Source: an uncultured Planctomycetota bacterium (GTDB lineage: Bacteria; Planctomycetota; Planctomycetia; Isosphaerales; Isosphaeraceae). From it: DNA of 64,000 nucleotides. Made by a program: the position numbers and the translations under genes. Positions 7,580 to 50,305 of the stretch are shown here, one piece after another (position 1 is the stretch's first letter; each line of letters opens with the position of its first letter). The stretch covers positions 288,001 to 352,000 of the forward strand of contig CAWJTV010000041.1 in NCBI GenBank assembly GCA_963845755.1, written 5' to 3'. A model generated the notes under the pieces. It worked only from the letters and a program-made list of their open reading frames with translations. It made no database searches and was not told the origin of the DNA.

Positions 7580-9653
7580 ATGACCATGACGCTGTTGCCC
7601 TCCGCAATTCCTGTGGACGATCACAAGACGGATGAGCCGGCACCGCGCCGGTTCAGGGCTCACCTTCGTGTGTCCCTCGCGGCGGCCATCGCCACCGCGA
7701 TCGTGGCGATGGCCATGCTGAGCGGACACGGGAGGTCCGCCCGAGGCGATGACAAGGGCTCATCGAAACCCGGGACTTCCGCGCCGGCGGCGGGGTCTTA
7801 CTGGGCGTTTATCTCGATGATCGACCGCGTACTGAAAAGCAACGACGACCGGCTGATCGAGCTCGTGAAGTCCGTCCTCGGGAACGGGGAGGCTCCCAAT
7901 CCGGGTTCGGATGAGCTCCCGGCCGTCGACCTTCAGGTCGAATCGGCCGAGGCCCGCTACAAGAGCGCCAAGCTCGATCGCGAGGCCGCCAAGCTCGCCC
8001 TGCGCGAATACGACAAAGGGACCTTCGTCCGGGAGCAAGCGATTGAAGAATCCGAGATCCAGTGTGCCCGGAACAAGTTGGAGGCGCGCGGAAAGCGGTC
8101 CCGGAAGCCAAGGAACGACTCGCCCACATCAGGGCGTTCTTGAAGAATGAGTCTGCCCTCGCGCTCAACGTCGAATACGAGTACATCGACCGCGTCGCTG
8201 CTGCCGAGTTGCTTGGAAGTAAGAGCGACGCTCGAGCTGGAACAGGCCGAAAGCAAGAAAAAGATACTGGAACAATACGTTAGGGGCAAGACCATCAAGG
8301 AGCTCATGAGCGAAGCTATTAAGGCCAGTTCCGAGGAGCTGGCCGGGCAAGCGACCTGGGAGCTGGAGAAAGGCAAACGCGCCGCGGTCGAACAGGATGA
8401 CAAAGCGACCTGAACTGACTGATGTCGAGAAGCACATCCTTTCGCTCGTCATGCAGGCGTTTTCGATCCAGGACGCGATCGAGGCGAAGCGGGGCCAGCT
8501 CGTCAAGGGAGGGAAAACCGACGAGTCACTCCAGGCGGCGCTCCGCGATCTGACCAACCAGTTCGAAGGGCTCGTGGACCAGGCGGCGATCGAACAGGGA
8601 TCGGCGCGGATCGCCAGGTTGAAACGGGAAATCCGCACAGGTGCCCGTTTTCCCGCCCCGCGAACCGGAGCGGTCGGGATTCTCGCCAGGATCCTGGACC
8701 GATCCGCGAAACCGACCCTGGGCGAGGAAACGCCGCGATCCCAGCCGGAAATCCCGACGCCCGAACTGACGTCCCACTCACCGGCCGCCACGCAGACCCA
8801 GCCGTCCTTGGACGAGATCTCGGAGCGCCTGATCGGCCTGGCCGGGCGCGTCCTGAAAGCTCCCGCGTCCGGCCAGGATCCTCGAGATCAGCTCATGACA
8901 CAGATGATCGGCGCTGCATCCGCCGAGACCGAGTACAAGAATGCCAAGTTAGTCCGTGAGGTCGCCGAGATCAAAGTCATCGAAAACACCGAAGGGGTTT
9001 TTCGTCAGGATCAGGCGACGGCGGACGGCGAGATCGTCCTCGCTCGCTCTGACATTCCTCGTGCTCAGGAACAGGCCCAGAACGCGAAAGACCGGCTCGC
9101 GCGCATCACGGCGCTCTCGGGAAACTCCCTTTCGGACCTCAGGCTCGTTCAATTCTACGCCGACCAGGTTGCTGCGGCCGAATTGAGGGAACGCAACGCC
9201 GAGGCGAGGGACACTCTCAAGCAGGCCGAAGCGAAGAAGATGATTCTGGCCAATTACACCCAGCCGAAACGGAAGAAGCAACTCGAGGCCGAAGTCGAGA
9301 AGTCCCGTGCCGAGGAGCTGGCCAAGCAGGCGGTGTGGGAGTCCGCGAAAACCCGGGAAGCTCGCCTGAGGAAGGCGATTCAACGACCGACGTCGGACAA
9401 CAACACCAAGCGGATCCTCGCCCTCATCGAGCGGGCGATCCCGATCGAGGAGCAACTCTATGGAAAAGCCATTCAGATCGCGAAGGGACAGCGAATCAAC
9501 GACCTGCTCAGCAAAGAAATCCATGATCTTACATATGAATTGATGGCCATTGTTGACGAAGGGGAAGCCCTGTGGTCGGCAGGCGAGCTTATCCGGTTGA
9601 AGCCGCGCGTCGAAGCGGCCATTCGTCCCGCCAACCCGGCGTCAGCGAAGTGA
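7580..9653 (+). CDS. Membrane-anchored coiled-coil protein with two HlyD-like alpha-hairpin modules (paralog A; frame breaks near 8090, 8215 and 8395)
   Basis: ORF pieces 7580..8143, 8062..8283, 8147..8413 and 8397..9653 align end to end with intact paralog 9845..11905; motifs AKLVREVAEI and EELAKQAVWE. Confidence 0.65.
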
Positions 9654-9844
9654 CGAAAGTGATCACGGGGCAGGCCCTCCTTTCGGCGCGGTGCGGTGGC
9701 TGGAGTGGGCGGCCCGCTGGGCCGACGCACCCAGGAGAGCCCCGATCTGCCGGTTGCGTTGCGACCGACTCGATTTATCAGCGATAATCAATCTCTGGGC
9801 TCCGGCTTCCTCTCAAACCCGCCAGGCCGAACAAGGAGATCACC

Positions 9845-11905
9845 ATGACGCTGTCACTCGCCTCGACTACCGTTGACGATTGGAACACCGAAGCGTCGGT
9901 TCCGCGCCGGTCCAGGGCTCGTCTTAGCGTGTCCCTCGCAGCGGCCATCGCCACCGCGATCGTGGCGCTCGGCCTGATGAGCGGACCGGGAAAGCCTGCC
10001 CGCGGCGATGACAAGGACCCATCGAAACCCGGGGCTTCCGTGCCGGACCCGCGGTCTTACCAGGCGTTCATCTCGGAGATCCAGCGAATTCTGACGAGGA
10101 ACGAAGATCGGCTGATCGAGATCGTGAACCCCATCCTCGATAACGCGGAGGCTTCCGATCGCATCCGGACTGAAATCGTCAGCCTCGAACTTCAGGTCCG
10201 ATCGGCCGAGGCCCGACTCCATAGTGCCAATCTCGACCGCGAGGTTGCCGAGCTCACCCTGGATGAATACCAGAAAGTGGCCTCTGCCCAGGAAAAGGTG
10301 GCTGTGGAAACCGAGCTCAAGCGCGCCACTGACAGGTTGGAGAGAGCTCGGAAAGCGGTCTCGGAAGCGATGGACCGACTCGCCCAGATCCGTGCGCTCA
10401 TGAAGAAGGAGTCCGCCTCCGATAAGGACATGGAGAACAACTACACCTTCCGCGTCACGACGGCCCAGTTCGAGGAGAGAAGGGCGGAGGCGGCGGTGGT
10501 GGAAGCCGAGGTCAAGAAGAATGGATTCCTCCATCCCCGATGGAAGCAGCGCCTTCGCGACCTTCGCGCCGAGATCGAGAAGGCACGTGCCGAGGAACTG
10601 GCCAAGCAAGCGAGCTGGGAACTGGCGAAAGGTCGACTCGATCAAGCGAAGAAGTCGCTCAAACGGGCGGGGCTGACTGAGGTCCAGAGGTATCTCCTCG
10701 CTCTGGTTCAACAAGCGTTTCCGATCCAGGACGCGATCGAAGCGAAGCGGGATCAGCTCGCCGGAGGCGGTAAACCCGACGAGTCGCTCCAGACGGCGCT
10801 TCGAGACCTGACCAACCAGCTCGAGTCGCTCGGGGAGCAGGTGGGGTTGGAACAGGCGGGGGCACGATTCGCCAACCTCAAACCCCAGGTCCATTGGGCT
10901 GCTCGCCCCTCGCCTTCACGAACCGGATTGTTCGGGTTTCTTCGGGCCGCCAACCCGAATAAGCCGTCGAAGCCCGCCCTCGACGATGAAAAGACTCGAT
11001 CCCAGCCAGGGGCTCCGGCGCCCGAGAAGGCGTCACACCAACGGCTTGGTGCCGAAGCCCAGCAGCCTTTGAACGCCGTCTACGATCGGCTGATCGGCCT
11101 CGCCGAGCGGGTCTTGAAGGATCCTACCCAGGGGCAGCTTCAGGATCAACTTGTCAATCAGCGGATCGAGACCGAATCTGCCAAGGCCAGCTATCAGACC
11201 TCCAAACTGACCCGCGAGGTCGCCGAAATCGCCATAACCGAATACACGGGCGGGATCTTTCCGTCGGATCTGGCGACGGTGGAAATGGAAATCATCCCCG
11301 CTCATTCGGACCTGCAACGGGGTCGGGATATCGTCGAGTTCGCGAAGGACCAACTCGCACGGAGCAAGGAACGCGCGGCCAAATCTGTCTTGGACCTCCA
11401 TCGCCAATACTTCTATGCCGACGCGGTTGCCGAGGCGGAGCAGGAGGACCGCAAGCGCGCTGACCTGCTCGAGCAGTTCGAAGCCAAGAAGAAGCTCCTG
11501 CTCGTATACACCAAGCCGAAACGGCTGAAGGAACTTCAGATCGAGGTCGAAAAGGCCTGCGCCACCGAACTGGCCAACCAGGCGAAATGGGAAATCGCGA
11601 AGGCCCGGGAAGCTCGCCTGGAGAAGATGATCCATCGGGAAGATCCGGCCGAGGACCACCGGCGAGTCCTCGCCCTCATCGAAAGGGCGATCCCAATCGA
11701 GGAGCAAATCCGCGCGAAGCTCCCAAAGCTCGCGAAAGCGGAGAAACCCGACGACCTACCCCACAAGGAAATCGAAGATCTGACGAATGAACTGAGGGCC
11801 ATTGTCGACCAGGGGGAAGCGGTGCAGTCGGCGGGCGAGTTCGCCGGGCTGAAACCACGGATCGAAGAAGCCATTCGCCGGACGAACTCGGCGGCAGCGA
11901 AGTAA
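9845..11905 (+). CDS. Membrane-anchored coiled-coil protein with two HlyD-like alpha-hairpin modules (paralog B)
   Basis: TM segment LAAAIATAIVALGL; module repeated (SANLDREVAE...EELAKQASWE and TSKLTREVAEIAITEY...YTKPKRLKEL...ELANQAKWE); RBS aggag. Confidence 0.7.
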   Translation: MTLSLASTTVDDWNTEASVPRRSRARLSVSLAAAIATAIVALGLMSGPGKPARGDDKDPSKPGASVPDPRSYQAFISEIQRILTRNEDRLIEIVNPILDNAEASDRIRTEIVSLELQVRSAEARLHSANLDREVAELTLDEYQKVASAQEKVAVETELKRATDRLERARKAVSEAMDRLAQIRALMKKESASDKDMENNYTFRVTTAQFEERRAEAAVVEAEVKKNGFLHPRWKQRLRDLRAEIEKARAEELAKQASWELAKGRLDQAKKSLKRAGLTEVQRYLLALVQQAFPIQDAIEAKRDQLAGGGKPDESLQTALRDLTNQLESLGEQVGLEQAGARFANLKPQVHWAARPSPSRTGLFGFLRAANPNKPSKPALDDEKTRSQPGAPAPEKASHQRLGAEAQQPLNAVYDRLIGLAERVLKDPTQGQLQDQLVNQRIETESAKASYQTSKLTREVAEIAITEYTGGIFPSDLATVEMEIIPAHSDLQRGRDIVEFAKDQLARSKERAAKSVLDLHRQYFYADAVAEAEQEDRKRADLLEQFEAKKKLLLVYTKPKRLKELQIEVEKACATELANQAKWEIAKAREARLEKMIHREDPAEDHRRVLALIERAIPIEEQIRAKLPKLAKAEKPDDLPHKEIEDLTNELRAIVDQGEAVQSAGEFAGLKPRIEEAIRRTNSAAAK

Positions 11906-11947: not shown

Positions 11948-12877
11948 ATGATCCGGATCAAGGACTTGCGCGTTGACTACGATAACGTCTGCGCCGTGCG
12001 CGACCTCACGATGGAGGTCGGGCCAGGCGAGGTCTGCGGCCTGATCGGTCCTAACGGCGCCGGCAAGACCACGACGATGCGCGCCATGCTCGGCCTGCTG
12101 GAGCCGACCTATGGCGAGATCGAGATCATGGGGGTCGACGTCCGCGAGCATCCCCGCGACGTCTGCCGGATCGTCGGCTTCATGCCCGACTTCCCGCCGG
12201 TCTACGAAGATTTGAAAGTCTGGGAGTTCCTCGACCTGTTCGCCGCCAGCTACGGGCTGAGCCGCTCCCAGCGCATCGACGCCGTGGCCGATCACCTCGA
12301 CATGGTCGGCCTGACCGAGAAGCGCGGGGCGATGGTCGTCGAGCTGTCGCGGGGAATGCGCCAGCGGCTGATGCTCGCCAAGACCATGATCCCCGATCCC
12401 CGCGTGCTTCTGCTCGACGAGCCGGCCAGCGGGATCGATCCCCAGGGCCGAATCGACCTCAAGAACATCCTCCGCCGCATGGCCGAGCAGAAGAAGACGG
12501 TCCTGATCTCCTCGCACATCCTCGCCGAGATGAACGAGTTCTGCACGTCGGTCACGATCATGGAACGGGGCCAGATCGTCGTGAGCGGGCGGATCGACGA
12601 GGTGAATCGGCGGATCCTGGGCGACTCGCTCCTCTCCGTCGAGGTGCTCTCCAACGTGGAACAATTCGAATGGATCGTCGGCGCCGACGATTGGGCCGGT
12701 CCGATCCAGCGCCGGGACGACCATACGTTTGAGTTTCGCTACCGGGGCGATGCCGAGGCCGCCAGCGAGCTGCTCGCACGGCTGGTGGGGCAGGGGGTCC
12801 GGATCTCCGGCTTCGCCCGCCGCCGGGATAACCTCGAAGATCTGTTCCTCAAGGTGGGGTCCAAGGAGCTTTCGTGA
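11948..12877 (+). CDS. ABC transporter ATP-binding protein (ABC-2/CcmA-like)
   Basis: Walker A GPNGAGKTT, signature LSRGMRQR, Walker B LLLDEP, SSH switch. Confidence 0.95.
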   Translation: MIRIKDLRVDYDNVCAVRDLTMEVGPGEVCGLIGPNGAGKTTTMRAMLGLLEPTYGEIEIMGVDVREHPRDVCRIVGFMPDFPPVYEDLKVWEFLDLFAASYGLSRSQRIDAVADHLDMVGLTEKRGAMVVELSRGMRQRLMLAKTMIPDPRVLLLDEPASGIDPQGRIDLKNILRRMAEQKKTVLISSHILAEMNEFCTSVTIMERGQIVVSGRIDEVNRRILGDSLLSVEVLSNVEQFEWIVGADDWAGPIQRRDDHTFEFRYRGDAEAASELLARLVGQGVRISGFARRRDNLEDLFLKVGSKELS

Positions 12878-14428
12878 TGAACTGGGACGGCCTGCGTGAG
12901 TGGCTCGACAACCCGATCCTCGTCAAGCACCTGCGGTCGCGACTCCGGCCGCAAGCCGTCCTCTCGGCGCTGGTGGTGGTCCTCGTCCTTTGCCTCTGCA
13001 TCGCCTACGCTGGCTACGAGCTCGACATGTTTATCTCCGGCGGAGCGGCCGGGTGGTTGCTGTGCCTCCAGGTCATCATCCTGATCATCATGGGAGCGTC
13101 GCAGGTCAACGCGTCGGTCAACGGCGCGGCGCGCCTCCGGCATCCTCGACTTCCATCGCGTCACGCCGATGACGCCCACCGAGCTGACGTTCGGCTTCTT
13201 CTTCGGCGCGCCGATCCGGGAGTATCTGCTCTTCGCCGCGACCCTCCCCTTCCTGCTCATCTGCATGGCCTTCGGCGTCCCCAGCCCCCGCGCGGCGATC
13301 CAACTGATGATCCTCCTGATCACGACCGGCTGGTGCTTCCAGGGGATCGCGCTCTTGAACGGCCTCATCTCGAGATCCAGGACCGCCACCGGCAACGTCA
13401 TCGGTATCGTAATCATATTGATGTTTTTGTTCGTAAATATGGCAATAGGCGGCCGATGGTTTTCGATCAACCTGGCCGAGGGCGATCAGCGATTGAGCTT
13501 CTACGGCGTCTCGCTCCCCTGGATGCCGGTGATCCTGATCTACCAGCTCCCGTTCCTGTTCTTCATCCTGCTGGCGTGCTGCCGGAAGATGCAATCGGCG
13601 CGGCTCCATCCGCTCTCGAAGCCCCAGGCGATCGTCGCCATGGTGACGTTCGCAGCCCTGGTGCTGGGAGGGATCTGGCGACAGGAAGACTACGAGTATC
13701 GGGAGATCGTCGCCCTGTACATGCTCGCGATCCCGGCGATCTTGCTGACCATGATGGTCACGCCCAATCAGGCCGAATACTACAAGGGCCTGTGGCGGGC
13801 CCAGAAGCTCGGCGCAACCGGCTCCCGTGGTGGGACGACCTGTCGGTGAACTGGGTCGCGCTGGCGCTCATCGCGGGCATCGTGCTGGCTGTCGGCACGA
13901 TCGCCGGGACGTTTCCGGGAGTCACTTCGCCGGCCTACGGGCGATCGTGGGGATCGTATCCCCTGGCGCTGGCGACGGCGGTCCTGGTCGTCAGCTATTT
14001 CGGCCTGGCATTGCAGTACTTCTTGCTCCGATTCGCGGGGCGGGGCACGACCTACTTCGGCCTCTTCCTGTTCCTGACCTGGGCCTTGCCGATGGTTGCC
14101 GGCACGATCCACGGGTGGGCCTCGGGACCAATGCGGACGAGTGAGGCGGGGTATCCTTTCTACGCCTTGAGCCCGATCGCAGGGATCGGGATGGTTGCGA
14201 CCATCGGCGATGAGGGCTTCGCCACGGCCATCCAGTCCTCCGCCATCACGCCGGCCCTGCTGTTCACCTTCGTCTTCCAATACCTCCTGCTCGGCGGCAG
14301 AGCGCGTGATCAAGGCGGTCTACCTCGCGGCGGCGAACCTCGAGCCGCCGCCCGTGGCAGCCACGCCGTTCGATCCGGTCCTACACGACAAGAGCCAGGA
14401 ACCCGCGCGTGAGGAACCGGTCGTCTGA
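12874..14428 (+). CDS. ABC transporter permease-like polytopic membrane protein (frame breaks near 13135, 13812 and 14298)
   Basis: DNPILVKHLRSRLR start and many TM helices spread over three frames; overlaps the ATPase stop. Confidence 0.7.
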
Positions 14429-14459: not shown

Positions 14460-14883
14460 TCAACGCTTCGCCCTTGCCGGGAGCTTCCTTGCTGAACGGA
14501 GCGCAACCGCCGCGCAGCCGACCGCCAGCAAGATCACGCTCGAGGGCTCGGGTATGGAGGAAGTGGCGATGGTGATCGATCCCGCTTGAGTCGTCAAGGA
14601 GACGCCGGCGCCGGTAGAGTCCGAGAGCGATGGATCCGGGCCGATCCCCAGTGTGCCGCTCGTGCCGGCAACTGCGCCAGAGGCGACCGTGTACTGGACG
14701 TTCAACAGGCCGAAAACATCACCCACATTGATCGTCTGAGAACCGGAGGGATACAGAAAGTCAAAAACCTCAACGTCATTGCTCGACACATTAATATTAA
14801 ACGTAGATCCATTGAGGCTTGCCGAGTTTGCGCCGTAGAGGTAAGGCGTGACCTTTGCAATCGAAATTCCGGTGAACGACACG
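14460..14883 (-). pseudogene. PEP-CTERM surface protein, 5'-truncated by repeat elements
   Basis: C-terminal IPEPSSVILLAVGCAAVALRSARK; no signal peptide; the first about 19 codons of the ORF lie within the palindromic element 14884..14990. Confidence 0.7.
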
Positions 14884-14990
14884 CTAAATGACTTTGCACG
14901 ATCCGGGGAGGGCGAGCCTCCGTGCGAGCCGATATTCATCAGGGGCTCGGACGGAGCCTCGCCCTCCCGGAATCACGCAAGGCCATTTAG
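14884..14990. repeat. About 107-bp palindromic REP/MITE-like element
   Basis: Inner arms gggagggcgagcctccgtgcgagcc / ggctcggacggagcctcgccctccc; outer arms ctaaatgactttgcacgatccgg / ccggaatcacgcaaggccatttag. Confidence 0.75.
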
Positions 14991-15301
14991 AGCGCTTTAC
15001 GGTTGCATTGCGCACGTCTCCGGCGAGAGCGATCGAGCCCCACCCGAAGCCTTGGGGACGTCCTGCGGCGGCCTGAAGGGCCGCAGCAACCCAGCCTGGG
15101 GTGAAACCCCAGGACTCATGCGCCCTGCGCCCTTCTTGTGCACCCTGACGGGTGCCGGAGGGATCTCCTGCGGCCCTTCAGGCCGCCCGAGACGTGGGCG
15201 TGCCGTGGACCCCGGGTTTCACCCGGGGCTCGGCTCCCGCGGCCCTTCAGGCCGCCGGAGATCGGCTGTTCTTGTGCGCAACCCATCTGTTAAGCGCTCC
15301 A
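14988..15301. mobile_element. Non-autonomous MITE-like element with 28-bp imperfect terminal inverted repeats and a REP-like cargo (15068..15255)
   Basis: tagagcgctttacggttgcattgcgcac (14988..15015) vs reverse complement of 15274..15301 tggagcgcttaacagatgggttgcgcac, 22/28 identical; inside are gcggcctgaagggccgc, cctggggtgaaaccccagg and their inverted copies. Confidence 0.6.
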
Positions 15302-15326
15302 AGATGTGAACGGCTACCCGCCGATT

Positions 15327-18254
15327 TCACGCGCCGACCGTCACCCGGCGGTTGCGGTGCAGCGAGTGATCGACGGCCGTTGACATCCTGGTGAAATCCA
15401 GCTCTCCGCCGGCGAATCGGTTTAACACATTCGCGGCCGCCAGGGGATCGCGAATGACGTCTCCATGCCGAATTCGCAATAAAGACACATCTTCCCGATG
15501 ACTCAACAGGCCCACGGTCTGGGCGATCAGGCGGTCGTATTCGCGGCGGAGGCGGTCGCGACGTTCGGGGGTGTCCTCGATCGATTCGCCGCGCCGGGCG
15601 ATCATTTTCGCTTGCGAGGCGAGGATCTCGTTGCAGTCGCGTTCGATCAGGACGACCCGGTAGTTGCAGCCGGGCGGGAGATGGCAGACGAGCGGGACGA
15701 CGACTTTCAACGCCTTGCCGCGCGCCTCGGTCAGCCAGCCTTGGTCGCGGAACATCGCCTTCACGGCTTCGTGTTCGAAGTAGCCCCTGGGGTTGTCCTC
15801 GTCGGCCTCGCGGAGCGTATCGGTGAGGATCGGCATCCCACCGGCGTGAAGCATTTGCATCACCATCGATGTGCCCGAACGCGGCAGGCCGCTCACGATC
15901 AAGACGTCGTCGCCCAGCGGCGGGAGGGGGGCGTCGAGGTGCGTGGGGATGAGGACAGGCGCGGGCGCGGCAGTCTCGGCCAGCTTCCCAGCCGCCACCC
16001 GCCAACCGCCGCCCACCACCCGCGCGGAGGGTTTCTCCGGCCGGTGGCGATGCATCTCGCGATACCAATGGAAATGCTCGGCCGCAGTCTCGGGGTCGTT
16101 GAGCCGGAACTTGAGCATTCGGGCGAGCATCAGATGGGCTTGGGGGAAGTGCGGGTTCTGCGACAGCGCGGTTCGGAAGCAGTCGGCCGCTCGGGCGTAT
16201 TCGCGGAGGCCCACCAACGCGACGCCCTGGAGGAAGTGGGCCATCGGCGAGAAATAGAGCCGGCCCAACGCCTCGCCGGCGGCGTCCGCGGCGCGCTGGT
16301 ACTCGCGGCGACGCAGGGCCAGCCGGGCGATGCCGAGATGGGCCTGGGTGTTGTCGGGGTCGATCGCCAGGGCTCGGTTGTAGACCGTCTCCGACTCGGG
16401 CAGCCGACGCAGCCGGAGCAGCAGGTCGGCGGTCTGGAGCAGGATCGACGGGCCGATGGTTTGCGTCGTGCCGAGGCGCTCGAGGATCTCCAGCGCGGGG
16501 AGCACGTGCTGCTCGGCCGCGAGCGATTGAGCCTGGAGCAGATCGGTGATCGCCGGGTGATACCGCTTGAGCCTCTGCGTTTTCTCGAGCTCCTTGCGCT
16601 CGTCGGGCTGGAGCAGGAACTCGCGCGGCTTATCGGGCTGCGCGTACGGGTTGAGCTCGTACTGAATCTCCTCGTCGCATTCCCGCGGGTCGGGCGTCTC
16701 ACCGGCGGCGGCCTTTTTCTCCTCATAGCGATGTTTCACCAGGTCGCGAAATTCAGCCATCCGCTCGAGGGCGGCCCGGAACAGCTCACGACGGCGACCG
16801 GCCATGTCGTCCACGATCTCGCGCATCTCCGCGACGTGGCCGAGGGCCTGGCACGAGAGGAAGCGTTTCAAGGCATAGCGCTGGTTGTCGGGATTGCGGT
16901 GGCAGAGATCGCGGGCGATCTCGAGCGCTTCGGCGTGCCGGTTGCCGTCCTGGTACGCTTCCAGCAGATTGAGACGCAGCTCATCGACCGTGTGCGCAAT
17001 GTATTCTTCGATGTTTTCGCCTGGCTTCTCGACATATCCGAGTGCGACGAGCTGTTCCATCGCCTCGGCGGCGGCGACGGGGTCGAGCCGGGTGTGAGGC
17101 GGGTGGCGGCCGTCGTTGCCGGGCACGTCGTCCCAGGTGGGAATCGTGCGGACCTCCGGTGGATTCTCGAACGCCGCCGTGATGACGTCGCCGTCCATAT
17201 CTTCGCCGACCGGCAGGTCGTAGAGCGTCAATACGGTGGGGGTGAGGTCGAGCACGTTCACGCCAAAGAGGGGTTCATCCTGCTTGATGCCGGGGCCGGC
17301 GATGACGAAGATGCCGTACGGGCTATGTTCGAAGGCGGGGCCGGCCGGGAAATCCGGAATGGCGCGGGGGCGGAGGTGGTCGGGGTGGAACCCGTGGTCC
17401 GACATGAGGATCACGGTCGTGTCGTCGGGCACCTTGCTCAGGAGGGTACCCAGCATCTGGTCGTGGAATTGATAGGCGGTCGTAACAACCTGGGAGTACC
17501 GCTCGAAATCGTCCTCGCTAACCCACTCCTGTCGCGGAGGGTGATACCGCATGAAGCCGTGGCAGAAGTGGTCGATCGCGTCGTAATAGACCGCGAAGAA
17601 GTCCCAGGGCTGATTGTCGAGCAGCCAGGTGGCGGCGGAGTGGATGCTCACGCATTCGGCGATCGTCTGGCCCAGACTGGAGAACCGCCGGTCCTTGACT
17701 TGATCGACCTTTTCGAGATGGGGAACGAACGGGACCATCATCGGGCCGAGCAGCTCTTGAGGATGCATGCGACACTCGGCCAGCGCCTCTTGTAATTCGG
17801 GCGGGTGGACGGTATTGGGCAACATCGGCCAGCCCTGGTCGATCGGCCGATGGGCTTTATGGTAGTGGTCCGACACCATCACGCCGTTGATCGGCTCGGC
17901 GGGATGGCTGGGCCACCAGCCGATGACGATGCTGCGATAATCGTTCTGGTTGAGGATGTTCCAGACGGTCTTGGTCGTGCGCGAGAGATTGGTGATCGGC
18001 CGGACGCCGCGGCCGTCGGGCGTGGGTTCGGAGAAGCCGTGAATGCCGTGCTTGAACGGACGCTTGCCGGTGGCGATCGACGTCCAGAGCATGGGCGAAA
18101 GCGGCGGGTGCAACGTGGCGCAGCGGCCCATGGCCCCGCGTTCCACCAGGTTTTGCAGATGCGGCATCTGGCCGGCATCCATCAAGGGATGAATCGCTTT
18201 CCAATCGGCGGCGTCCCAGCCAATGAACAGGACTTTTTTCTTGCTGGTCTTCAC
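15327..18254 (-). CDS. Fusion of an alkaline-phosphatase-superfamily (phosphodiesterase-like) domain, TPR repeats and a C-terminal sulfotransferase domain
   Basis: IGWDAADW, TLHPPLSPMLWTSIATG, DHFCH and MSDHGF (AlkP); ALAIDPDN and ALSQNPHF (TPR); IVSGLPRSGTSMVMQML (PAPS loop) and NPRGYFE; GTG start at 18254 chosen because the upstream ORF extension runs through REP elements. Confidence 0.85.
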   Translation of the reverse strand: MKTSKKKVLFIGWDAADWKAIHPLMDAGQMPHLQNLVERGAMGRCATLHPPLSPMLWTSIATGKRPFKHGIHGFSEPTPDGRGVRPITNLSRTTKTVWNILNQNDYRSIVIGWWPSHPAEPINGVMVSDHYHKAHRPIDQGWPMLPNTVHPPELQEALAECRMHPQELLGPMMVPFVPHLEKVDQVKDRRFSSLGQTIAECVSIHSAATWLLDNQPWDFFAVYYDAIDHFCHGFMRYHPPRQEWVSEDDFERYSQVVTTAYQFHDQMLGTLLSKVPDDTTVILMSDHGFHPDHLRPRAIPDFPAGPAFEHSPYGIFVIAGPGIKQDEPLFGVNVLDLTPTVLTLYDLPVGEDMDGDVITAAFENPPEVRTIPTWDDVPGNDGRHPPHTRLDPVAAAEAMEQLVALGYVEKPGENIEEYIAHTVDELRLNLLEAYQDGNRHAEALEIARDLCHRNPDNQRYALKRFLSCQALGHVAEMREIVDDMAGRRRELFRAALERMAEFRDLVKHRYEEKKAAAGETPDPRECDEEIQYELNPYAQPDKPREFLLQPDERKELEKTQRLKRYHPAITDLLQAQSLAAEQHVLPALEILERLGTTQTIGPSILLQTADLLLRLRRLPESETVYNRALAIDPDNTQAHLGIARLALRRREYQRAADAAGEALGRLYFSPMAHFLQGVALVGLREYARAADCFRTALSQNPHFPQAHLMLARMLKFRLNDPETAAEHFHWYREMHRHRPEKPSARVVGGGWRVAAGKLAETAAPAPVLIPTHLDAPLPPLGDDVLIVSGLPRSGTSMVMQMLHAGGMPILTDTLREADEDNPRGYFEHEAVKAMFRDQGWLTEARGKALKVVVPLVCHLPPGCNYRVVLIERDCNEILASQAKMIARRGESIEDTPERRDRLRREYDRLIAQTVGLLSHREDVSLLRIRHGDVIRDPLAAANVLNRFAGGELDFTRMSTAVDHSLHRNRRVTVGA

Positions 18255-18323
18255 GGGGGCACCTGAATGGGGCGAGCAGCGCGGCCTTCGGCCGCGAGTG
18301 GCAAGTGATAAGTGATAAGGTGA

Positions 18324-18450
18324 ACCCAGGGTGCGCCTTCGGCGACCCTGGGCTTTGATGTGCAACCCCATTGGGGTACGGCCACGTCGGCTCCTTACGC
18401 CAACGGCGTTATACAGCAGAGCCCAGGGTCGCCGGAGGCGCACCCTGGGT
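18324..18450. repeat. REP-like inverted doublet
   Basis: acccagggtgcgccttcggcgaccctgggct ... agcccagggtcgccggaggcgcaccctgggt. Confidence 0.75.
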
Positions 18451-18508
18451 CTGGGGGCCCCAAAAGACCCCCTACCCCACCAGGGTTGCCCAACAGCGAG
18501 TCGTAGCT

Positions 18509-18657
18509 TGTCGGGTGGGTTGAGCCGCGATTTCAATCGTGGCGTTAGCCCACCGGCACAAGAAGCGTTGGAGCCCACCGGCACAGCAACCCGGCAGGTC
18601 CGCCGACAGCCTGGAGACGGTGGGCCAGCGCCGCGATGCGGCTCGACCCACCCTACA
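18509..18657. repeat. GTAG-type REP-like inverted doublet
   Basis: tgtcgggtgggttgagccgc ... gcggctcgacccaccctaca. Confidence 0.7.
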
Positions 18658-18672
18658 GGCTGGGACAGGTTC

Positions 18673-19383
18673 TTACTCGGCAACCTTCGCCCTGGTCCTG
18701 GCGCGGCGGAGCGCGGCCAGGCCGACCGAGCCGGTGGCCAGCAGGCCCAGGGCCAGCGAGCTGGGCTCGGGGATCGCGCCGCTGCTCGTTTGTCCGGCGT
18801 AGATCGAGCCGCCAGACACGTCGTTGTACGCCCAGCCGAGGACTGTGATCTCGTTCGGATAGCCGGTACTGCCCGTGTCGGACACCTGGACCTTAATCCA
18901 CCCGAGGTCGCCGTTGGGAGCCTTGAAACCGACGTATCCCGTCACGACTCCTGGACCGAACGAGCCGTGGACAGCGCCGTTGTTGTTGGTCTGTACCGTC
19001 GCGTTGATTTTCGAGGCCAACACGTGAATCGGATTGCCAAACGAGTATTTCTTGGCGGCATTCCCACTCGCATTCTGGGCGAATCCCAGGGCCTTGCTGG
19101 CCGTCACGTGGGTGAAGCCGACGTATCCTTTGGCTGCGCCGCCACCGGCAAACAGCGATTCCTTGAATCCCCCTATGGTGATGAGCTTCGACTTGAATGT
19201 GGTAACGCCCAACGGTCGAGAAAGGGACTCGCTGATGGGTCCGCTGTAGACGATCCCGGCATCGGCGTTGGTGCCGGCGGCCAGCGAGGCGCCCCCGACC
19301 GCGGCGAACGTCCGCCACTTGCCGAGGTGCGCCCTCCATGAGGCGCTCTTCCCGTCGAGGACAAGGCGGGTTTTCGGGTTCAT
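18673..19383 (-). CDS. PEP-CTERM sorting-domain surface protein
   Basis: Leader WRTFAAVGGASLAAGTNADA/GIVYSG; beta-rich G/T/S/K body with GYVGF, LGWIKV and GWAYND; C-terminal IPEPSSLALGLLATGSVGLAALRRAR; RBS aggag. Confidence 0.85.
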   Translation of the reverse strand: MNPKTRLVLDGKSASWRAHLGKWRTFAAVGGASLAAGTNADAGIVYSGPISESLSRPLGVTTFKSKLITIGGFKESLFAGGGAAKGYVGFTHVTASKALGFAQNASGNAAKKYSFGNPIHVLASKINATVQTNNNGAVHGSFGPGVVTGYVGFKAPNGDLGWIKVQVSDTGSTGYPNEITVLGWAYNDVSGGSIYAGQTSSGAIPEPSSLALGLLATGSVGLAALRRARTRAKVAE

Positions 19384-19743
19384 CGAATCGCGTTCTCCTT
19401 TTTTGGCTCACCACCGAGTGAACGGGTCAGGCAGGAGGGATTGCTCGTCGCCGAACGATTCCGAGGCAGCAGGCTACGATTCCAGCAGGCCCAGACAGTC
19501 GTGTCAAGTGTCTGCATTCTTGACTGCACGGGATAGCGGGATCACGTTTCCTAATCTCACCATTCGCGACCGCAGTTATTTACGTAGCTACATCATTCGG
19601 GGACACGTCCTCCGCGTGGCGGAAGCCGCCGCCCCGCGATGAACCCGGGCGGTCACGCCGGGCGTAGCGGCTTCACGCGGCGGCGTTCACTTACCCTCGA
19701 GGAGCTGGGAAATCCGAATTCGCGGCAGGTAAGGACGGTCCAC

Positions 19744-19975
19744 TCACTGCGCGGCGTCGGCTTTGGCGCGGCGGAGCGCGGCCAGGCCGACCAGGGCGAC
19801 CGGCCCGACGAACCCGAGCCCGCGCAGGTAGCCTGGCAGGCTGCAAACGACCTCGTGCCGGAACGAGTCGAGGTCGACCCGCCACAGCTTCCCCGCGCCC
19901 GAGTTGAGCACCCAGAGCCAGCCGTCGTGGAGGCGGGGCGAATGCGGCATACTCAGCCCGCGCAGGACGACCTCT
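19744..19975 (-). pseudogene. TIGR03032/DUF4915 family internal fragment fused to a PEP-CTERM-type tail
   Basis: EVVLRGLSMPHSPRLHDGWLWVLNSGAG...LPGYLRGLGF matches recalled TIGR03032 motifs; ends VGLAALRRAK, with 29 bp identical to the tail of 18673..19383. Confidence 0.75.
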
Positions 19976-20497
19976 CTAAGACCTGGTAGGAAAGACACCC
20001 ACGAGGGCGATGATGTAGTTCAGCACGAGGTACGGCTGCTGGTTCTCATGGGGTTGATTGCCGCCGGCGGGCGAGGTTGCCGCCGCGGACATCGCACCCG
20101 GCGGCGTCAACGTGCCGAAGGGTTGGTCGTTCGGCGGTTTGGCCCAGTCGGTCCCTGCGGGCGAATTGTTGTCGCCGCCCCGCCCGAAGGCGAGCGCGCC
20201 ATGAGTATGTGCGGCCAGCTGACTCGCAGTCAGCGTGACTGACGCCGTGCCGCCGGTCTGGCCCAGGACGTAAGGGCTCAAGCCCGCCCCCACGCCCGCG
20301 CCGATCGCCGCGGACCCCTGGAGGTTCGGGAGGCCGAAGGTTGTCGTCCCGTTCCCTCCGAACTGAGTGCCCAGCAGCGAGAACAGCGCCGTGTTCTGGG
20401 CGATCGGCAGGATCTGACCGTTACAGAACGCCCACCCCTGGGGGGCGAAGTTATACGGGACCGGAATCACCTGCCCTATGAACGGAGTTGCCGGCAT
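19976..20497 (-). CDS. Phage tail collar domain protein (microcystin-dependent protein-like), copy 3
   Basis: PFIGQVI...NFAPQGWAFCNGQILPIAQNTALFSLLGTQFGGNGTTTFGLPNLQG, HTH, PHENQQPYLVLNYIIAL; RBS aggag before ATG 20497. Confidence 0.9.
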   Translation of the reverse strand: MPATPFIGQVIPVPYNFAPQGWAFCNGQILPIAQNTALFSLLGTQFGGNGTTTFGLPNLQGSAAIGAGVGAGLSPYVLGQTGGTASVTLTASQLAAHTHGALAFGRGGDNNSPAGTDWAKPPNDQPFGTLTPPGAMSAAATSPAGGNQPHENQQPYLVLNYIIALVGVFPTRS

Positions 20498-20702
20498 CGG
20501 ATCATCTCCTGGTTTCTGAATCGTGGTTTCCAAAGGGGGGCTCGTTCCGAGTCCCCGAGGCGCTTGTCCTGGTCTTGAGAGAGCCACGTCACATGAAGTT
20601 ACTATCATGTCGTCACAGATCGACCCGGGTGCTGCCTCTCGATGGTCGGGTCGGCCATGGCTTCTGGAACGAATCCCGATCGGGGTGCGATTGCGGTGCG
20701 GA

Positions 20703-21224
20703 TCAGCTCCTCGATGGGAAGATCCCCTCCAGGGCGATGATGTAGTTGAGTGCCTGGTAAGGCATGATGTTGGGATGCGGTTGATTCCCACCCGCCGATC
20801 CGATGGCATTCGGGGCCATGGTGCCCGCGCCGAGCTCGGCTTTGTAGGGCTTGTCCTTGGAGGCCTGCGCCCAGATGCCGTTGACCGGCGTTTGGCTGTT
20901 GCTCCCTCCAGTGAAGCACAGCGCCTGGTGCGTATGACCGGGGAGCTGGTTGCTGTTGAGCGTCACGCTCTCGGAGCCGCCGATTTGTCCGATAGCGTAA
21001 TTGCTCAGGCCGGTCCCTTGACCCTGGTGGAGGGCGATGCGACTCTGCAAGTTCGGCAGGGCGAAGGTGCTTACCCCGTCGCCTCCATAGGTCGTGCCGA
21101 TCAAACTGAACAGCGCGGCATACTGGGAGATGGGCAGGAGTTGACCGTTGCACACTGCCCAGCCGACCGGCGCAAAGTTGAATGCAACCGTGGTGATCTG
21201 ACCGACAAAGGGGTCCACTGTCAT
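20703..21224 (-). CDS. Phage tail collar domain protein, copy 2
   Basis: DPFVGQI...FNFAPVGWAVCNGQ...TYGGDGVSTFALPNLQSR, HTH, PHPNIMPYQALNYIIALEGIFP. Confidence 0.9.
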   Translation of the reverse strand: MTVDPFVGQITTVAFNFAPVGWAVCNGQLLPISQYAALFSLIGTTYGGDGVSTFALPNLQSRIALHQGQGTGLSNYAIGQIGGSESVTLNSNQLPGHTHQALCFTGGSNSQTPVNGIWAQASKDKPYKAELGAGTMAPNAIGSAGGNQPHPNIMPYQALNYIIALEGIFPSRS

Positions 21225-21274
21225 GCTCCTTCCCATCGTGCTCGCGGGGGCATCCGCGGCGGGATGATCGTTCG

Positions 21275-21784
21275 TTAGTTGCGAGAAGGGAATATGCCTT
21301 GAAGCGCGATGATGAAATTGACGACCAGGTACGGCTGAAGGTTGGAATGAGGCTGGGAGCCTCCATTCGGCGTGATCAAGCCGGTGAGCATCGACCCGTT
21401 GGGATTGGACCCGGTCTGGTAGAGCGTCTCATTGAAGGTCGATCCGGCCCAGACCTGACTGGCCGGCTCTCCGGTGGTGCCGGCTTGCGTGGAGCACACC
21501 GGAGGGTGCGAATGGGCGGCGATCTGGTTGATATTCAGAGTCACATTCTCGAGGCCGGCCGCGCTGCCCAGAGGGTAGCTCGAGCTGCTATGGACGGCGA
21601 CCCGGCTCTGCAGGTTGGGCAGCGCGAAAGTACTTATTCCATCGCCGCCAAAGGTCGTCCCCAGCAGCGAAAAGAGGGCTGTATTTTGGTTGATCTGGAG
21701 GATCTGTCCGTTGCACAACGCCCATCCTCTTGGGGCAAAGTTGAATGCGACCGGGGTGATTTCCCCGAGGTAAGGTTCTGCCAT
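21275..21784 (-). CDS. Phage tail collar domain protein, copy 1
   Basis: MAEPYLGEI...FNFAPRGWALCNGQ...FGGDGISTFALPNLQSR, HSH, PHSNLQPYLVVNFIIALQGIFPSRN; RBS gaggtg. Confidence 0.9.
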   Translation of the reverse strand: MAEPYLGEITPVAFNFAPRGWALCNGQILQINQNTALFSLLGTTFGGDGISTFALPNLQSRVAVHSSSSYPLGSAAGLENVTLNINQIAAHSHPPVCSTQAGTTGEPASQVWAGSTFNETLYQTGSNPNGSMLTGLITPNGGSQPHSNLQPYLVVNFIIALQGIFPSRN

Positions 21785-21871
21785 GGTGATCACCTCGCGA
21801 TGTCCACTGACCTGGGAGAGAAGATGCCGCCGCACGACTCCGCAATCGGTCCGAGCCAGCCCGAACGGCGA

Positions 21872-22186
21872 TCAGTTGAAGATGGCCTGATAGTGCAAGC
21901 CCTGCGGGTCCCCTTCGGGCCCGAGGGGCACCAGGAAGATCCCCAGGGTGCCCCGCGTAGGGTGCTCGATCGGATAGATCTGCTGGGGGAGCGAGCGGTC
22001 GAGCGGGCCACGGAAGATCAGGGAAAACGCCTGCGACCGGATGCCGGATGAGGCCGGCGCATGGCTCTCGCCGATCGCCGTGGCGTCGATCAATTCCAGA
22101 TCGAGCACGTCTCCCGAGTCCAACGAGAACCGGAACGTGCTATTCACGTGGTCAACGAAGTCGGAAACGGTCAACTGATCCAGCAT
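21872..22186 (-). CDS. DUF6916-like small protein
   Basis: AFSLIFRGP...LPQQIYPIEHP...IFLVPLGP...YQAIFN, a pattern recalled for the family that accompanies tail-collar triplets. Confidence 0.7.
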   Translation of the reverse strand: MLDQLTVSDFVDHVNSTFRFSLDSGDVLDLELIDATAIGESHAPASSGIRSQAFSLIFRGPLDRSLPQQIYPIEHPTRGTLGIFLVPLGPEGDPQGLHYQAIFN

Positions 22187-22458
22187 GAATCACCCTGCGG
22201 CCTCGGGTCGTGGAGGAGTCTGCAGAGGTTCCGGTTCGTAACTGAGAAAAGCATTCGACCTGCTCCCTGCGCTATTGGGAACGGTCTTGCTCCTCGCCGT
22301 TCTGACTCGCATAGTTAATAGCACCTGGAACCGGCTGTCAAGGATCCACGCCAAATTGAGAAACTTCGTCTGAAAAGGTCGAACTGGATCAGCTTCGTGC
22401 CGGCCGTCAATCCGACGACATCAGCGGCATCATGGAGTTGCGATCGGAGGGTACTGCC

Positions 22459-22995
22459 ATGGTTCGCCAGCCTTTGACAGACCGCGTGCAAGGGCCGTTG
22501 GCCGGCTCGATCGTCCTCCGTCCCGCTCTGCCCGCGGACGAGTCATTCCTGTACCAGGTTTTTGCGAGCACCCGCGCGGAACAGATCGGGCTCGGCGACT
22601 GGGACGACGCCCAGAAGACAGTCCTTCTGAAGATGCAGTTCGGCGCCCAGAACGCCGCTTACCGTCAGGGCTTCCCGGAAGCGGGATATGAGGTGATCCT
22701 CGTCGGCGGTCAGCCGGTTGGTCGCCTCTTCATCCACCGTGGCCCCGAAGCGATCCGCGTGGTGGATGTCGGCTTGTTGTCGGAGCACCGAAACCAGGGG
22801 ATCGGCGGCGCGCTCCTGAAGGCGGTGCTGGATGAGGGCGCTGAGGCCGGCCAGCCGGTACGCCTCCACGTCGAAACGTTCAATCGGGCCGTCAGGTTGT
22901 ATGAGCGTCACGGCTTTGTGCCGATCGGTAGCGACGGCGTCCACATCGAGATGGAGTACGTTGCCGGCATTCCCGACCCAGGCCACGTTCTTTGA
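22459..22995 (+). CDS. GNAT family N-acetyltransferase
   Basis: RNQGIGGALL acetyl-CoA motif, NRAVRLYERHGF; N-terminal FASTRAEQ...MQFGAQ; RBS ggagg. Confidence 0.9.
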   Translation: MVRQPLTDRVQGPLAGSIVLRPALPADESFLYQVFASTRAEQIGLGDWDDAQKTVLLKMQFGAQNAAYRQGFPEAGYEVILVGGQPVGRLFIHRGPEAIRVVDVGLLSEHRNQGIGGALLKAVLDEGAEAGQPVRLHVETFNRAVRLYERHGFVPIGSDGVHIEMEYVAGIPDPGHVL

Positions 22996-28452: not shown

Positions 28453-28687
28453 GGCCGGCGCCGTTCCGTCGACGTGATCGCCAATGTCGTGCTATTCATT
28501 ATAGCAGGGAACCGGCCGTCGGTCTTCACCGGCTTCCCGGTATAATCTCGAGATTCGGACGTTGAGCGGTTCACAGGAAACCGGTCGTTCCCCGTAGGGT
28601 GAACCCACGAACGCGGTTTGAAAGGTCCCGTCCGACCGGGCATGGCAAAGTCCGAAGTCCAGTTGATGCAAACGGAGGATGGTGAGA

Positions 28688-30527
<1,840 letters not shown>

Positions 30528-48588: not shown

Positions 48589-49960
48589 CTAACTGCTGTC
48601 CAGTCGGATCTGGATCGGCCCGGCTCCGGCCGGCTCGAAGACCTCGTCCGGCCAGTGTCGAAACCGCAGGCTCTCCAACAATCGTTGCGCCATGTTCTTC
48701 AACGAGCCGAACAGCTCCACGGCCGTTCGCTTCCCCTGCTCTTGGGCCAGGTGCCGCAACAGGCTCCCCTTCTCCACCAGTTGCAACAGCAGATGGGCGA
48801 TCTGCAACAGGAAATAGTAGGCCGGCCAGCATCTGTGGCTGTAGGCATGTTCCAGGTTCAGGCCACTGTTCTTCTGGGTGTTAAATCCCTCGTTCTCCTC
48901 GCGCCAGCGTGCCCTCCCTCCGTTGGTCGCTACTTCCACCACAGTCTCGTGGCTCAAATCCAGAGAGGTCACCCACGACCATTCCGTCTGCTTTCCCTCC
49001 TTGCCCGTCTCGGTGCACTCCAGAGCGTTGATGGTCCAGTCCCGACCATCACTGTCCCTGTAGTGCAGGCCGTTGATCCAGCGATAGACCTGCCGGACCC
49101 CTTGCGGCGTCATCCGTTCCACGCGCGCTGGTCGGGACACAACCGCAGCAACCCCTGGAAATCCTCCCAGAGGGCGGGAAGTCGTCCAGGCTGAAACGTG
49201 TAAATGTAGTCGCATCGATAATCTTTGGCGACCTGGAATCCTTCTCCGCAGGCATACAGGCCGTCACCGCCGAGGCAAATCCGCAACTGCGGGAACTCGA
49301 TCCGCAACTTCTCCACCAGGCGTCGCAAGGCCTTCAACTCGCAATCCTGCTTGATCCGTTCCGCGCTGGCACCCGCTGGGGCACTGGCGACGTCGTGGTT
49401 GTCGATGAACTCACTGGCGATCGAGATGACCGTGCCGGCCGGCCCCAGCACCTTGGCCTCCAGCACCTGGTGCATATATAGCGTCGTCTCACCGTGCCGC
49501 TGGGTCAGGCAATCGTCGCAATGCCGGGAGTGAAACACCAGATAGCCCGAGCCGTCAATCAAGACGACGAACCGCCCCTGCAGCCGCGCCGCGTCCAGAG
49601 CCTTCATGCGGATCAACCGCTGGACCATCCGCTGCCGCAACCCGGCGATGGGGTCGGGGCCGATTTTCCCCAGGAAGTACTCCAAGGTCTGGTTCACCGG
49701 CCGGCTTCTTGCCGTACCCGCCAGACGATTGAGATTGGGCAGGACCTCCGGGCCGTCGGTGTTCAACTGGTAGTCCAGTTGGCGCCGGCTGCTCAACTTG
49801 CACAGGAACAAACTCAGCCCCCACCACAGCAGGAACCGCTTGTGGTAGATCACCAAGGGGGCAAACCGCGGGTCATCGATCGCATCGATCCAGGTGTTGA
49901 GATCGGGGAAGAAGTGACCCAGGGTTCGCACCAGGATAGGTCCGATGTTCAGCGTCGTCC
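48589..49960 (-). CDS. DDE transposase (DDE_Tnp_1-like), frame break near 49120; start uncertain
   Basis: IDDPR, VLIDGSG, KQDCELKA, GDGLYA, GRARWREENEGFNTQK. Confidence 0.85.
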
Positions 49961-50305
49961 CCGCCGCCGCTTTCGGTGCGAGACGTGGCCCTGGATCAAG
50001 GCCAGGGTCAACTGGCTGATTTCGTGGATCAGGCCTTTGAGACGTTGGTGTTCTTGCACCCATTCTTGGACCTCCGTGAGCAGGTCCTGGGGCACATACA
50101 CCGTGCGAGTCTTACCCCCCTCCGAGAAGGTGAGGTGGTGGGCGGAGTGCAACGGGCCACCGTGGTGGCAGGCGCAGGAGGGCTGGCCGCAACGTTTCTG
50201 CACCTGGGCCAGGCTGGCCGCCAGGAGCGGCCCAGCCGGAGCCAGTTGCTTGAGGCGGCGGTCGAGCATCCGACGGACCAGCGTGGGGTGGCTCGGCACA
50301 TGCAT
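49949..50305 (-). CDS. DUF6788-like Cys/His protein upstream of the transposase
   Basis: KRCGQPSCACHHGGPLH...GKTRTVYVP. Confidence 0.75.
   Translation of the reverse strand: MHVPSHPTLVRRMLDRRLKQLAPAGPLLAASLAQVQKRCGQPSCACHHGGPLHSAHHLTFSEGGKTRTVYVPQDLLTEVQEWVQEHQRLKGLIHEISQLTLALIQGHVSHRKRRRGRR

Follow-up and report, generated by a model that had tools for sequence, protein, structure and literature searches.

A collar-domain gene cassette and an enzyme/PEP-CTERM gene pair, very probably joined as a chimera in a planctomycete genome

The locus and its genes

The subject of this report is a gene cluster at positions 14460 to 22995 of a 64,000-nucleotide stretch of DNA (the window) from an uncultured planctomycete of the family Isosphaeraceae (assembly GCA_963845755.1, contig CAWJTV010000041.1, positions 288,001 to 352,000, forward strand). 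The host genome, 14.3 Mb and 88% complete, is called G000, and that of its congener G001. The cluster combines three genes for proteins with a phage-type collar domain, genes for DUF6916 and a GNAT acetyltransferase (together module A), and a gene pair for a large enzyme and a small PEP-CTERM protein (module B); it is very probably a chimera in which module B has replaced a giant gene inside the collar cassette. Comparison of sequences across genomes establishes two modules, their separate distributions, the replacement and two relics of it.

The GNAT gene, from a collar-associated subfamily, lies on the plus strand (22432-22995, likely start 22459; PF00583, E 5e-11), and every other gene and relic of the cluster on the minus strand. 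DUF6916 (21872-22186; PF21880, E 1e-26), here in a form lacking a signal peptide and single-copy in G000, is followed by collar subunit 1 (21275-21784; 169 residues, with an HxH motif and no signal peptide), subunit 2 (20703-21224) and subunit 3 (19976-20497), the last two of 173 residues each. All three match PF07484 (E about 1e-26, 90-95 bits against a cut-off of 24), subunits 2 and 3 are 52-53% identical to the first, and these are exactly the collar matches that the 14.3-Mb genome contains. Next come an internal fragment of a TIGR03032/DUF4915 gene (19784-19973), equivalent to residues 213-281 of a 369-residue orthologue, and the tail of a lost PEP-CTERM paralogue (19744-19792), 29 bp of which are identical to 18699-18727 within the intact PEP-CTERM gene of module B. 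That gene (18673-19383; PF07589) encodes 236 residues with an N-terminal signal region (recognised by eye), PEP motif, transmembrane helix and basic tail all present; G000 holds one full-domain copy of this family, which we call the 18673 type after its position, and three exosortase genes. An intergenic palindrome (18324-18450, 58-nucleotide arms, 84% complementary), presumably REP-like, precedes the second gene of module B (15327-18254), whose 975-residue product has no signal peptide and joins a Phosphodiest/Sulfatase domain (alkaline phosphatase (AP) superfamily, NPP-like) to TPRs and a Sulfotransfer_3 domain. A palindrome cluster (14884-15260) then separates module B from a 5'-truncated cohesin-fold PEP-CTERM gene (14460-14885, within an open reading frame (ORF) of 14460-14939), which is 56-61% identical to its intact orthologue and is a relic of module A. 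Profile searches recovered each of these elements with the family that an earlier, sequence-only reading of the stretch had given it.

The orthologous site and the anchor gene

Both flanks of the window's cluster are found again at three further loci (L122, which is the same sequence as L021, L123 and L124), where the gene order is GNAT, DUF6916, three collar genes, an intact TIGR03032 gene, a giant immunoglobulin (Ig)-repeat protein and a cohesin-fold PEP-CTERM gene. Split triplets, with the collars as separate genes, occur in 15 Isosphaeraceae genomes, namely G000, G001, one where the contig measures 3 kb, and 12 others. A large Ig-type neighbour is present in all of these 12, with a Pfam dockerin in seven, and in nine of them a homologue of the window's cohesin-fold relic comes next. 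The giant gene itself is absent from the window and gave no tblastn match in G000, at 88% completeness, with E 1e-5 as the threshold.

The predicted structure of the intact orthologue of the relic (pLDDT 71) has cohesins as its top Foldseek matches (E 1e-8, TMt 0.72-0.76); by sequence there is no Pfam cohesin match at E 0.01, and matches to scaffoldins are weak (best E 0.017). The relic is likely to be the former anchor of a lost, dockerin-ended giant protein, a cohesin-dockerin pairing being predicted from the modelled fold and the adjacency of the genes, and it supplies a tie between collars and PEP-CTERM sorting that the sequence-only reading had proposed, as the homologous gene stands behind the cassette's giant protein in relatives. 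An intact arrangement of the same kind exists elsewhere in G000 (contig C26, 196761-200985), where a 1155-residue dockerin-ended protein is followed by a cohesin-fold PEP-CTERM homologue; dockerin-bearing proteins in this genome number ten.

Both ends of the replaced segment are scarred. The TIGR03032 relic covers only positions 189-260 of a 316-position profile, scoring 89.7 bits against a curated cut-off of 251.5, and is fused in frame to the PEP-CTERM tail through the 29-bp identity to the end of the 18673 gene. At the other end, the ORF of the cohesin relic starts within a palindrome with 47-bp arms (14884-14990) and real homology begins only at about residue 19, so that the copy lacks its signal peptide and initial strands. 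The gene order in G001 is identical, with another TIGR03032 fragment and a slightly different cohesin break; the palindrome cluster is absent from its corresponding junction, and its second collar gene is frameshifted, though indel errors occur in assemblies of this kind. Four DNA sequencing runs (shares 0.05-0.08) and no RNA run are listed as containing this DNA; no displayed piece of them bridges the TIGR03032 junctions, which thus rest on this assembly, the overall order being common to G001. The ratio of non-synonymous to synonymous substitution rates (dN/dS) for the collar, DUF6916 and GNAT genes, all intact, is 0.27-0.42 against G001 and 0.23-0.30 against L122. The broken cohesin relic gives a collar-like 0.28-0.33, and the ratio therefore neither shows present function nor dates its loss.

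Separate distributions of the two modules

Module B was followed in the best 80 of 470 metagenome loci of the enzyme and in 16 Isosphaeraceae loci. An 18673-type protein is encoded in 45 of the former (38 of the 56 with upstream room) and in 14 of the latter, the two exceptions having, respectively, an unrelated upstream PEP-CTERM gene and no such gene; this supports a genetic coupling of the enzyme to the 18673-type PEP-CTERM protein, as the sequence-only reading had supposed. Collar, DUF6916 and TIGR03032 genes are found in none of these 80 loci, collars in none of the 16 family loci, nor in seven enzyme loci from other planctomycete families. Conversely, neither the AP domain nor the 18673 family occurs in any of the 79 collar loci described below. 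Among 121 genomes of the family, 23 have collars, 15 have the enzyme domain and five have both, with the two modules adjacent only in G000 and G001 and far apart in G257, G263 and G264. The earlier proposal that the whole combination forms one system is not supported by these counts, which show the lack of repeated co-occurrence that the sequence-only reading had itself named as a refutation.

Within the enzyme, residues D14, S53, D228, D286, H287 and H310 are invariant among 12 orthologues and H232 is nearly so; we take these to be the nucleophile and two-metal ligands of the AP domain. The sulfotransferase part matches PF13469 at 27.8 bits (cut-off 27) and contains a PAPS (5'-phosphosulfate-binding) loop, SGLPRSGTS, at residue 788; some orthologues measure about 800 residues, or their sulfotransferase part is encoded by a gene of its own. 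In an alignment of 32 homologues of the 18673 protein the leader is long and conserved, and a GW and an AY motif are invariant. Between G000 and G001 the dN/dS is 1.1 for the 18673 protein, where paralogy is possible, and 0.10 for the enzyme. From the gene pairing, the balance tips slightly towards the enzyme modifying its PEP-CTERM neighbour: the cytoplasmic enzyme would grip the long leader of its substrate through the TPRs and sulfate or phospho-modify it before Sec export.

Two candidate partnerships were set aside. The GNAT, which the sequence-only reading had acetylating the PEP-CTERM protein, travels with the collars and occurs in one of the best 80 enzyme loci. TIGR03032 as a partner of the collars is found in two of the 79 collar loci, both from Isosphaeraceae. 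Five further, long copies lie elsewhere in G000 without collars (one each on contigs C43, C33 and C5, two on C27; L109-L113), three of them adjoining large secreted repeat proteins. This pattern suggests that TIGR03032 serves such repeat proteins, not collars.

The collar cassette across bacteria

Cellular collar loci are represented by the best 79 of 577 confirmed stretches in GTDB genomes, with genes called by a purpose-written script; the loci are not independent in kinship, several coming from one family or genus. The nearest are from Planctomycetota, Singulisphaera and Isosphaeraceae, and the set extends to Acidobacteriota, Actinomycetota, Bacillota, Proteobacteria, Bacteroidota, Chloroflexota and other phyla. 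At least three collar genes are present in 67 of the 79, and within 3 kb of these triplets there is a GNAT in 56, DUF6916 in 49 and both in 47. An ORF of at least 900 residues lies within 1.5 kb of 42 of the 67 triplets, and of 37 of the 50 with full flanks, compared with 64 of 751 random sites of G000. Judged by gene content and order, then, module A (three collars, DUF6916 and GNAT) recurs in many phyla, usually beside a giant surface protein. In a domain scan of a subset of neighbours (100 of middle size and 60 pieces of large ones), the large neighbours are Ig, cadherin, invasin or FG-GAP repeat proteins. Many of their C-terminal ends are without Pfam match; those recognised are SLH, CWB2, type IX secretion (T9SS), RTX or dockerin, and these anchors fit the envelope type of the host.

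The three subunits keep their places. By nearest-neighbour identity, 141 of 171 subunits are closest to one at the same triplet position, across phyla; an HxH motif, which in collar fibre tips has a metal role, is present in 180 of 184, and the core formed by collar and HxH is about 50% identical across phyla. Longer homologues (2133 matches among 8000 scored candidates, of which the best 120 are described) join collars in one chain, with three repeats in 117, six in one and two in two, although the ranking by score favours repeats and these counts show existence, not frequency. By rule-based assignment, 88 of the 120 have a signal-like N-terminal end and 65 a PEP-CTERM-type tail (16 carry a precomputed PEP-CTERM Pfam match); 71 show a circular permutation that leaves out the head segment, and 27 are colinear fusions with a signal peptide and no anchor. 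None of the 120 is fused to DUF6916 or GNAT. In L126, a locus of the family Isosphaeraceae, a single gene encodes a planctomycete leader (its motif presumably the one named LEDR), a permuted triple collar, a stalk with an MBG domain and a dockerin, with a cohesin-fold gene next to it, and P0120 is of similar build; the triple collar lying between leader and stalk, the collar unit would be outside the cell, on the stalk. The single-chain triple fusions and the conserved subunit positions together make it likely that the three proteins assemble into a single heterotrimer exposed at the cell surface. The sequence-only reading had taken the collars for a domesticated fibre-tip module, outside any phage and linked to surface proteins of the PEP-CTERM kind; the triple-collar proteins with PEP-CTERM tails support this view.

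Other arrangements were seen in passing. Single collar genes in L031, L032, L050 and L077 adjoin secreted proteins with collagen repeats; there a homotrimeric head would sit on a collagen stalk that is itself trimeric, unlike the heterotrimer beside single-chain Ig stalks. In Isosphaeraceae, single collar genes (L019, L127, L129, L131) are directly followed by one for a secreted NHL-repeat protein, which in L127 and L129 ends in a PEP-CTERM tail recognised by Pfam. Six tandem collar genes occur in L153 and L052 (one an IMG/VR contig, one a cellular locus). Enzyme genes beside collar cassettes include a sulfotransferase with an Asp/Asn hydroxylase (L048, L056, L069, L121, L131), S-adenosylmethionine-dependent methyltransferases (L024, L045, L049, L080, L085, L093; one is fused to GNAT), PhoX (L041, L083, L096) and a phosphoribosyltransferase (L028, L061, L078, L091).

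DUF6916 and export

DUF6916 follows the collars closely. It is present in 19 of the 121 family genomes, each of which is one of the 23 that have collars; for the phylum the figure is 13 of 401 genomes, 12 of which have collars. Across the two samples, 22 genomes have split triplets and 19 of these have DUF6916, while in five genomes the collars are fused, their repeats sharing a reading frame (G260, G270, G464, G483, G511), and none of the five has it. Genomes whose separate collar genes number one or two do not enter this count. A second or sole copy with a twin-arginine signal, the Tat-type DUF6916, was recognised by eye in 24 of the 67 triplet loci, and in at least six of 18 family collar loci. 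The distribution and the Tat-type paralogue lead us to infer a helper where the subunits lack a signal peptide or covalent link, and the proposition that DUF6916 assists export or attachment is about evenly balanced. Piggy-backing of the folded trimer through the Tat system is a tentative idea for some lineages; with most triplet loci lacking a Tat-type copy, such a route cannot be general.

The predicted structure of DUF6916 is a split beta-barrel (pLDDT 85). There is no Foldseek match at E 0.001 and no sequence relative in the PDB; the nearest fold is that of the YcgR-N/PilZN domains (Z 8.2, root-mean-square deviation 2.6, 88 aligned residues, VIA). Binding of cyclic di-GMP, or any other function, was not accepted from this match, whose score level is common for unrelated barrels.

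A model for the cassette and its alternatives

The explanation we consider best as a whole, and fairly probable, is that the locus is a chimera and that the three collars of module A likely form one metal-bound, heterotrimeric binding head. In an intact module A, the three signal-less subunits would fold in the cytoplasm into a miniature fibre tip consisting of collar, short HxH neck and variable head. Export of the trimer would involve DUF6916 as an adaptor and, where there is one, its paralogue with a Tat signal as the carrier, and the trimer would end up at the distal tip of the giant Ig-repeat protein. In Isosphaeraceae the C-terminal dockerin of the giant protein would dock on the cohesin-PEP-CTERM protein, itself anchored by exosortase. 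The collar head would likely bind a surface glycan such as lipopolysaccharide. The weakest step concerns GNAT, which would likely acylate the stalk, DUF6916 or one of the collars while the structure is put together. Stated in its fullest form, as a dedicated pathway that in many phyla builds a phage-type heterotrimeric receptor-binding head, passes the folded head through Tat with DUF6916 as carrier and attaches it to the tip of any giant surface protein that suits the host envelope, the planctomycete stalk being held by an exosortase-anchored cohesin and a sulfating module having been swapped in here, the proposal is doubtful. In the window the stalk, the anchor and the Tat carrier are missing, so the collar module here is likely to be orphaned or to serve another stalk in trans, one of the ten dockerin-bearing proteins.

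Several observations weigh against this explanation. The giant partners share no domain at 50% mutual coverage, and no docking site was identified among them. The fold match of DUF6916 is at the level of unrelated barrels, three of the 22 split-triplet genomes are without this domain, the fused class comprises just five incomplete genomes, and 43 of the 67 triplet loci, the window and L122 included, have no Tat-type copy. The intact collar, DUF6916 and GNAT genes of the window show, at the dN/dS given above, no decay. The score ranking that limits the fusion counts tells in the same direction, as do the 71 permuted fusions themselves, which lack the head (about residues 101-135); the conserved function may accordingly be that of the collar core, not of a variable tip.

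This last point also speaks for a first alternative, that the trimer is not attached to the giant protein but free, secreted or periplasmic, with a collar/HxH core that serves to bind a metal or a small ligand, and is co-regulated with surface genes: the core keeps its identity across phyla even where the head is gone, and the colinear fusions with a signal peptide have no anchor. A protein with a collar domain, of whatever subfamily, is also listed for the Ruegeria pomeroyi exoproteome (PMC4949626). Against it stand the collar triples fused into stalks and onto PEP-CTERM tails, and the disappearance of DUF6916 once the triple is fused; we regard it as unlikely.

A second alternative retains a single system within this genus, in which, after the replacement, the collar trimer is carried by the 236-residue PEP-CTERM protein, itself a substrate of both the enzyme and GNAT. 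Two species do have the same gene order, their module A genes are intact while TIGR03032 has decayed differently in each, single collars lie directly beside small PEP-CTERM genes in L019, L127 and L129, and other sulfotransferases occur near collars in L048, L069, L121 and L131. Yet the arrangement is confined to two of 121 family genomes and is found in none of the other loci examined, its junctions are deletion scars, the second collar of G001 is frameshifted (perhaps by an indel error), and G257, G263 and G264 hold both modules at a distance. We judge this alternative quite improbable as a whole; recruitment of the 236-residue protein as a new collar carrier is possible, the evidence for it being adjacency in two species.

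That the collars are left over from a prophage, tailocin or contractile injection system is extremely improbable, and largely refuted: PF07484 and PHROG tail matches and a likeness to the 8kec long tail fibre (E 6e-7) speak for it, but among the 37 of about 60 window ORFs compared with PHROGs the collar gene is the sole structural match (the earlier reading had likewise found no capsid, terminase, sheath or tube gene), Terminase_6N, the one terminase family searched, has matches on other contigs and none on that of the window, both flanks of the cassette are housekeeping genes syntenic with relatives, full-length matches of at least 45% occur in a triplet in only three of the best 80 IMG/VR loci, with DUF6916 in none, and clustering the neighbours of the 79 cellular loci brings up no phage family more than once.

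Relation to known systems

A literature search, with subscription journals and supplements outside its scope, gave no account of either module, of DUF6916 or of collars combined with PEP-CTERM proteins; each part is of a kind already known, and the way they are put together is apparently undescribed. MrpB of Microcystis is reportedly a non-phage collar-domain protein linked to surface or host interactions. RhiB, from the rhiABC operon of Rhizobium, is likewise a non-phage bacterial collar protein with such a link (PMC13133039), though as described there it is one collar gene in a quorum-sensing operon with no mechanism given, in contrast to the triplet, DUF6916, GNAT and giant protein seen here. 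The closest parallel is viral. In virophage DSLV2, three consecutive PF07484 proteins were shown to purify together as a 1:1:1 heterotrimer and to attach to Synechococcus cells (PMC12724248); compared by description, the cassette has in common with it three consecutive genes of similar size with position-specific clades, and differs in that the DSLV2 proteins are viral and predicted to sit on the capsid, whereas the cassette is cellular, has no capsid genes and comes with DUF6916, GNAT and a giant surface protein. The tips of T4 gp37 and gp12 and of a cyanophage long tail fibre (PDB 8kec, 1ocy, 1pdi) offer the collar domain, the HxH motif and a returning C-terminal strand, but these are homotrimeric ends of long fibres and the subunits here are stand-alone paralogues of 170 residues outside any phage context.

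For the putative anchor there is a counterpart in ScaE and OlpA, which are single-cohesin anchoring scaffoldins. As in these (structures 2zf9 and 3ul4), one cohesin-fold domain with a sorting tail is encoded beside a dockerin-ended protein; they rely on sortase or SLH, whereas the present gene has a PEP-CTERM/exosortase signal in a diderm, its cargo is non-cellulolytic, the pairing is predicted and the window copy is truncated. In module B, the 236-residue protein bears a sorting tail of the PEP-CTERM/exosortase kind (PMC1569441). Like RaxST and RaxX (PMC4892823), module B places a cytoplasmic sulfotransferase beside its candidate secreted substrate; it differs in the three-domain AP-TPR-sulfotransferase fusion and in a partner that is a folded surface protein of an unnamed family.

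As a rearrangement scar of one genus, the eight-gene set would be a poor experimental model, and better test cases are offered by L117, L119 and L123, with the intact cassette, and by L126, the one-gene version. What the set contributes is indirect. The natural fusions show the triplet as a single secreted unit and locate it on the outer tip of a stalk, anchoring through cohesin, dockerin and exosortase is suggested by the relic gene, and the loss of DUF6916 in fused forms, with its Tat paralogue, suggests a first candidate job for this domain. If true, the model would account for many genes annotated as 'microcystin-dependent' or 'tail fiber' in genomes free of phages and for the orphan dockerins of planctomycetes, and a phage part turned into a modular head would join the known adhesins.

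Other features of the window

Three ORFs at 48589-50305 (minus strand), with no PHROG match, give the impression of an insertion sequence (a two-piece transposase and a small Cys-rich gene). Genes for an ABC permease (12874-14412) and glmS (28679-30527) are frameshifted in the window and intact in G001 and L021; the frameshifts are probably assembly indel errors, and lone frameshifts in these genomes should therefore not be taken for pseudogenes. Finally, 7586-11905 (plus strand) encodes two paralogous, apparently coiled-coil proteins without Pfam match, of which there is none at this site in L021 and one copy in G001; in the window one is of 686 residues and the other is in pieces.

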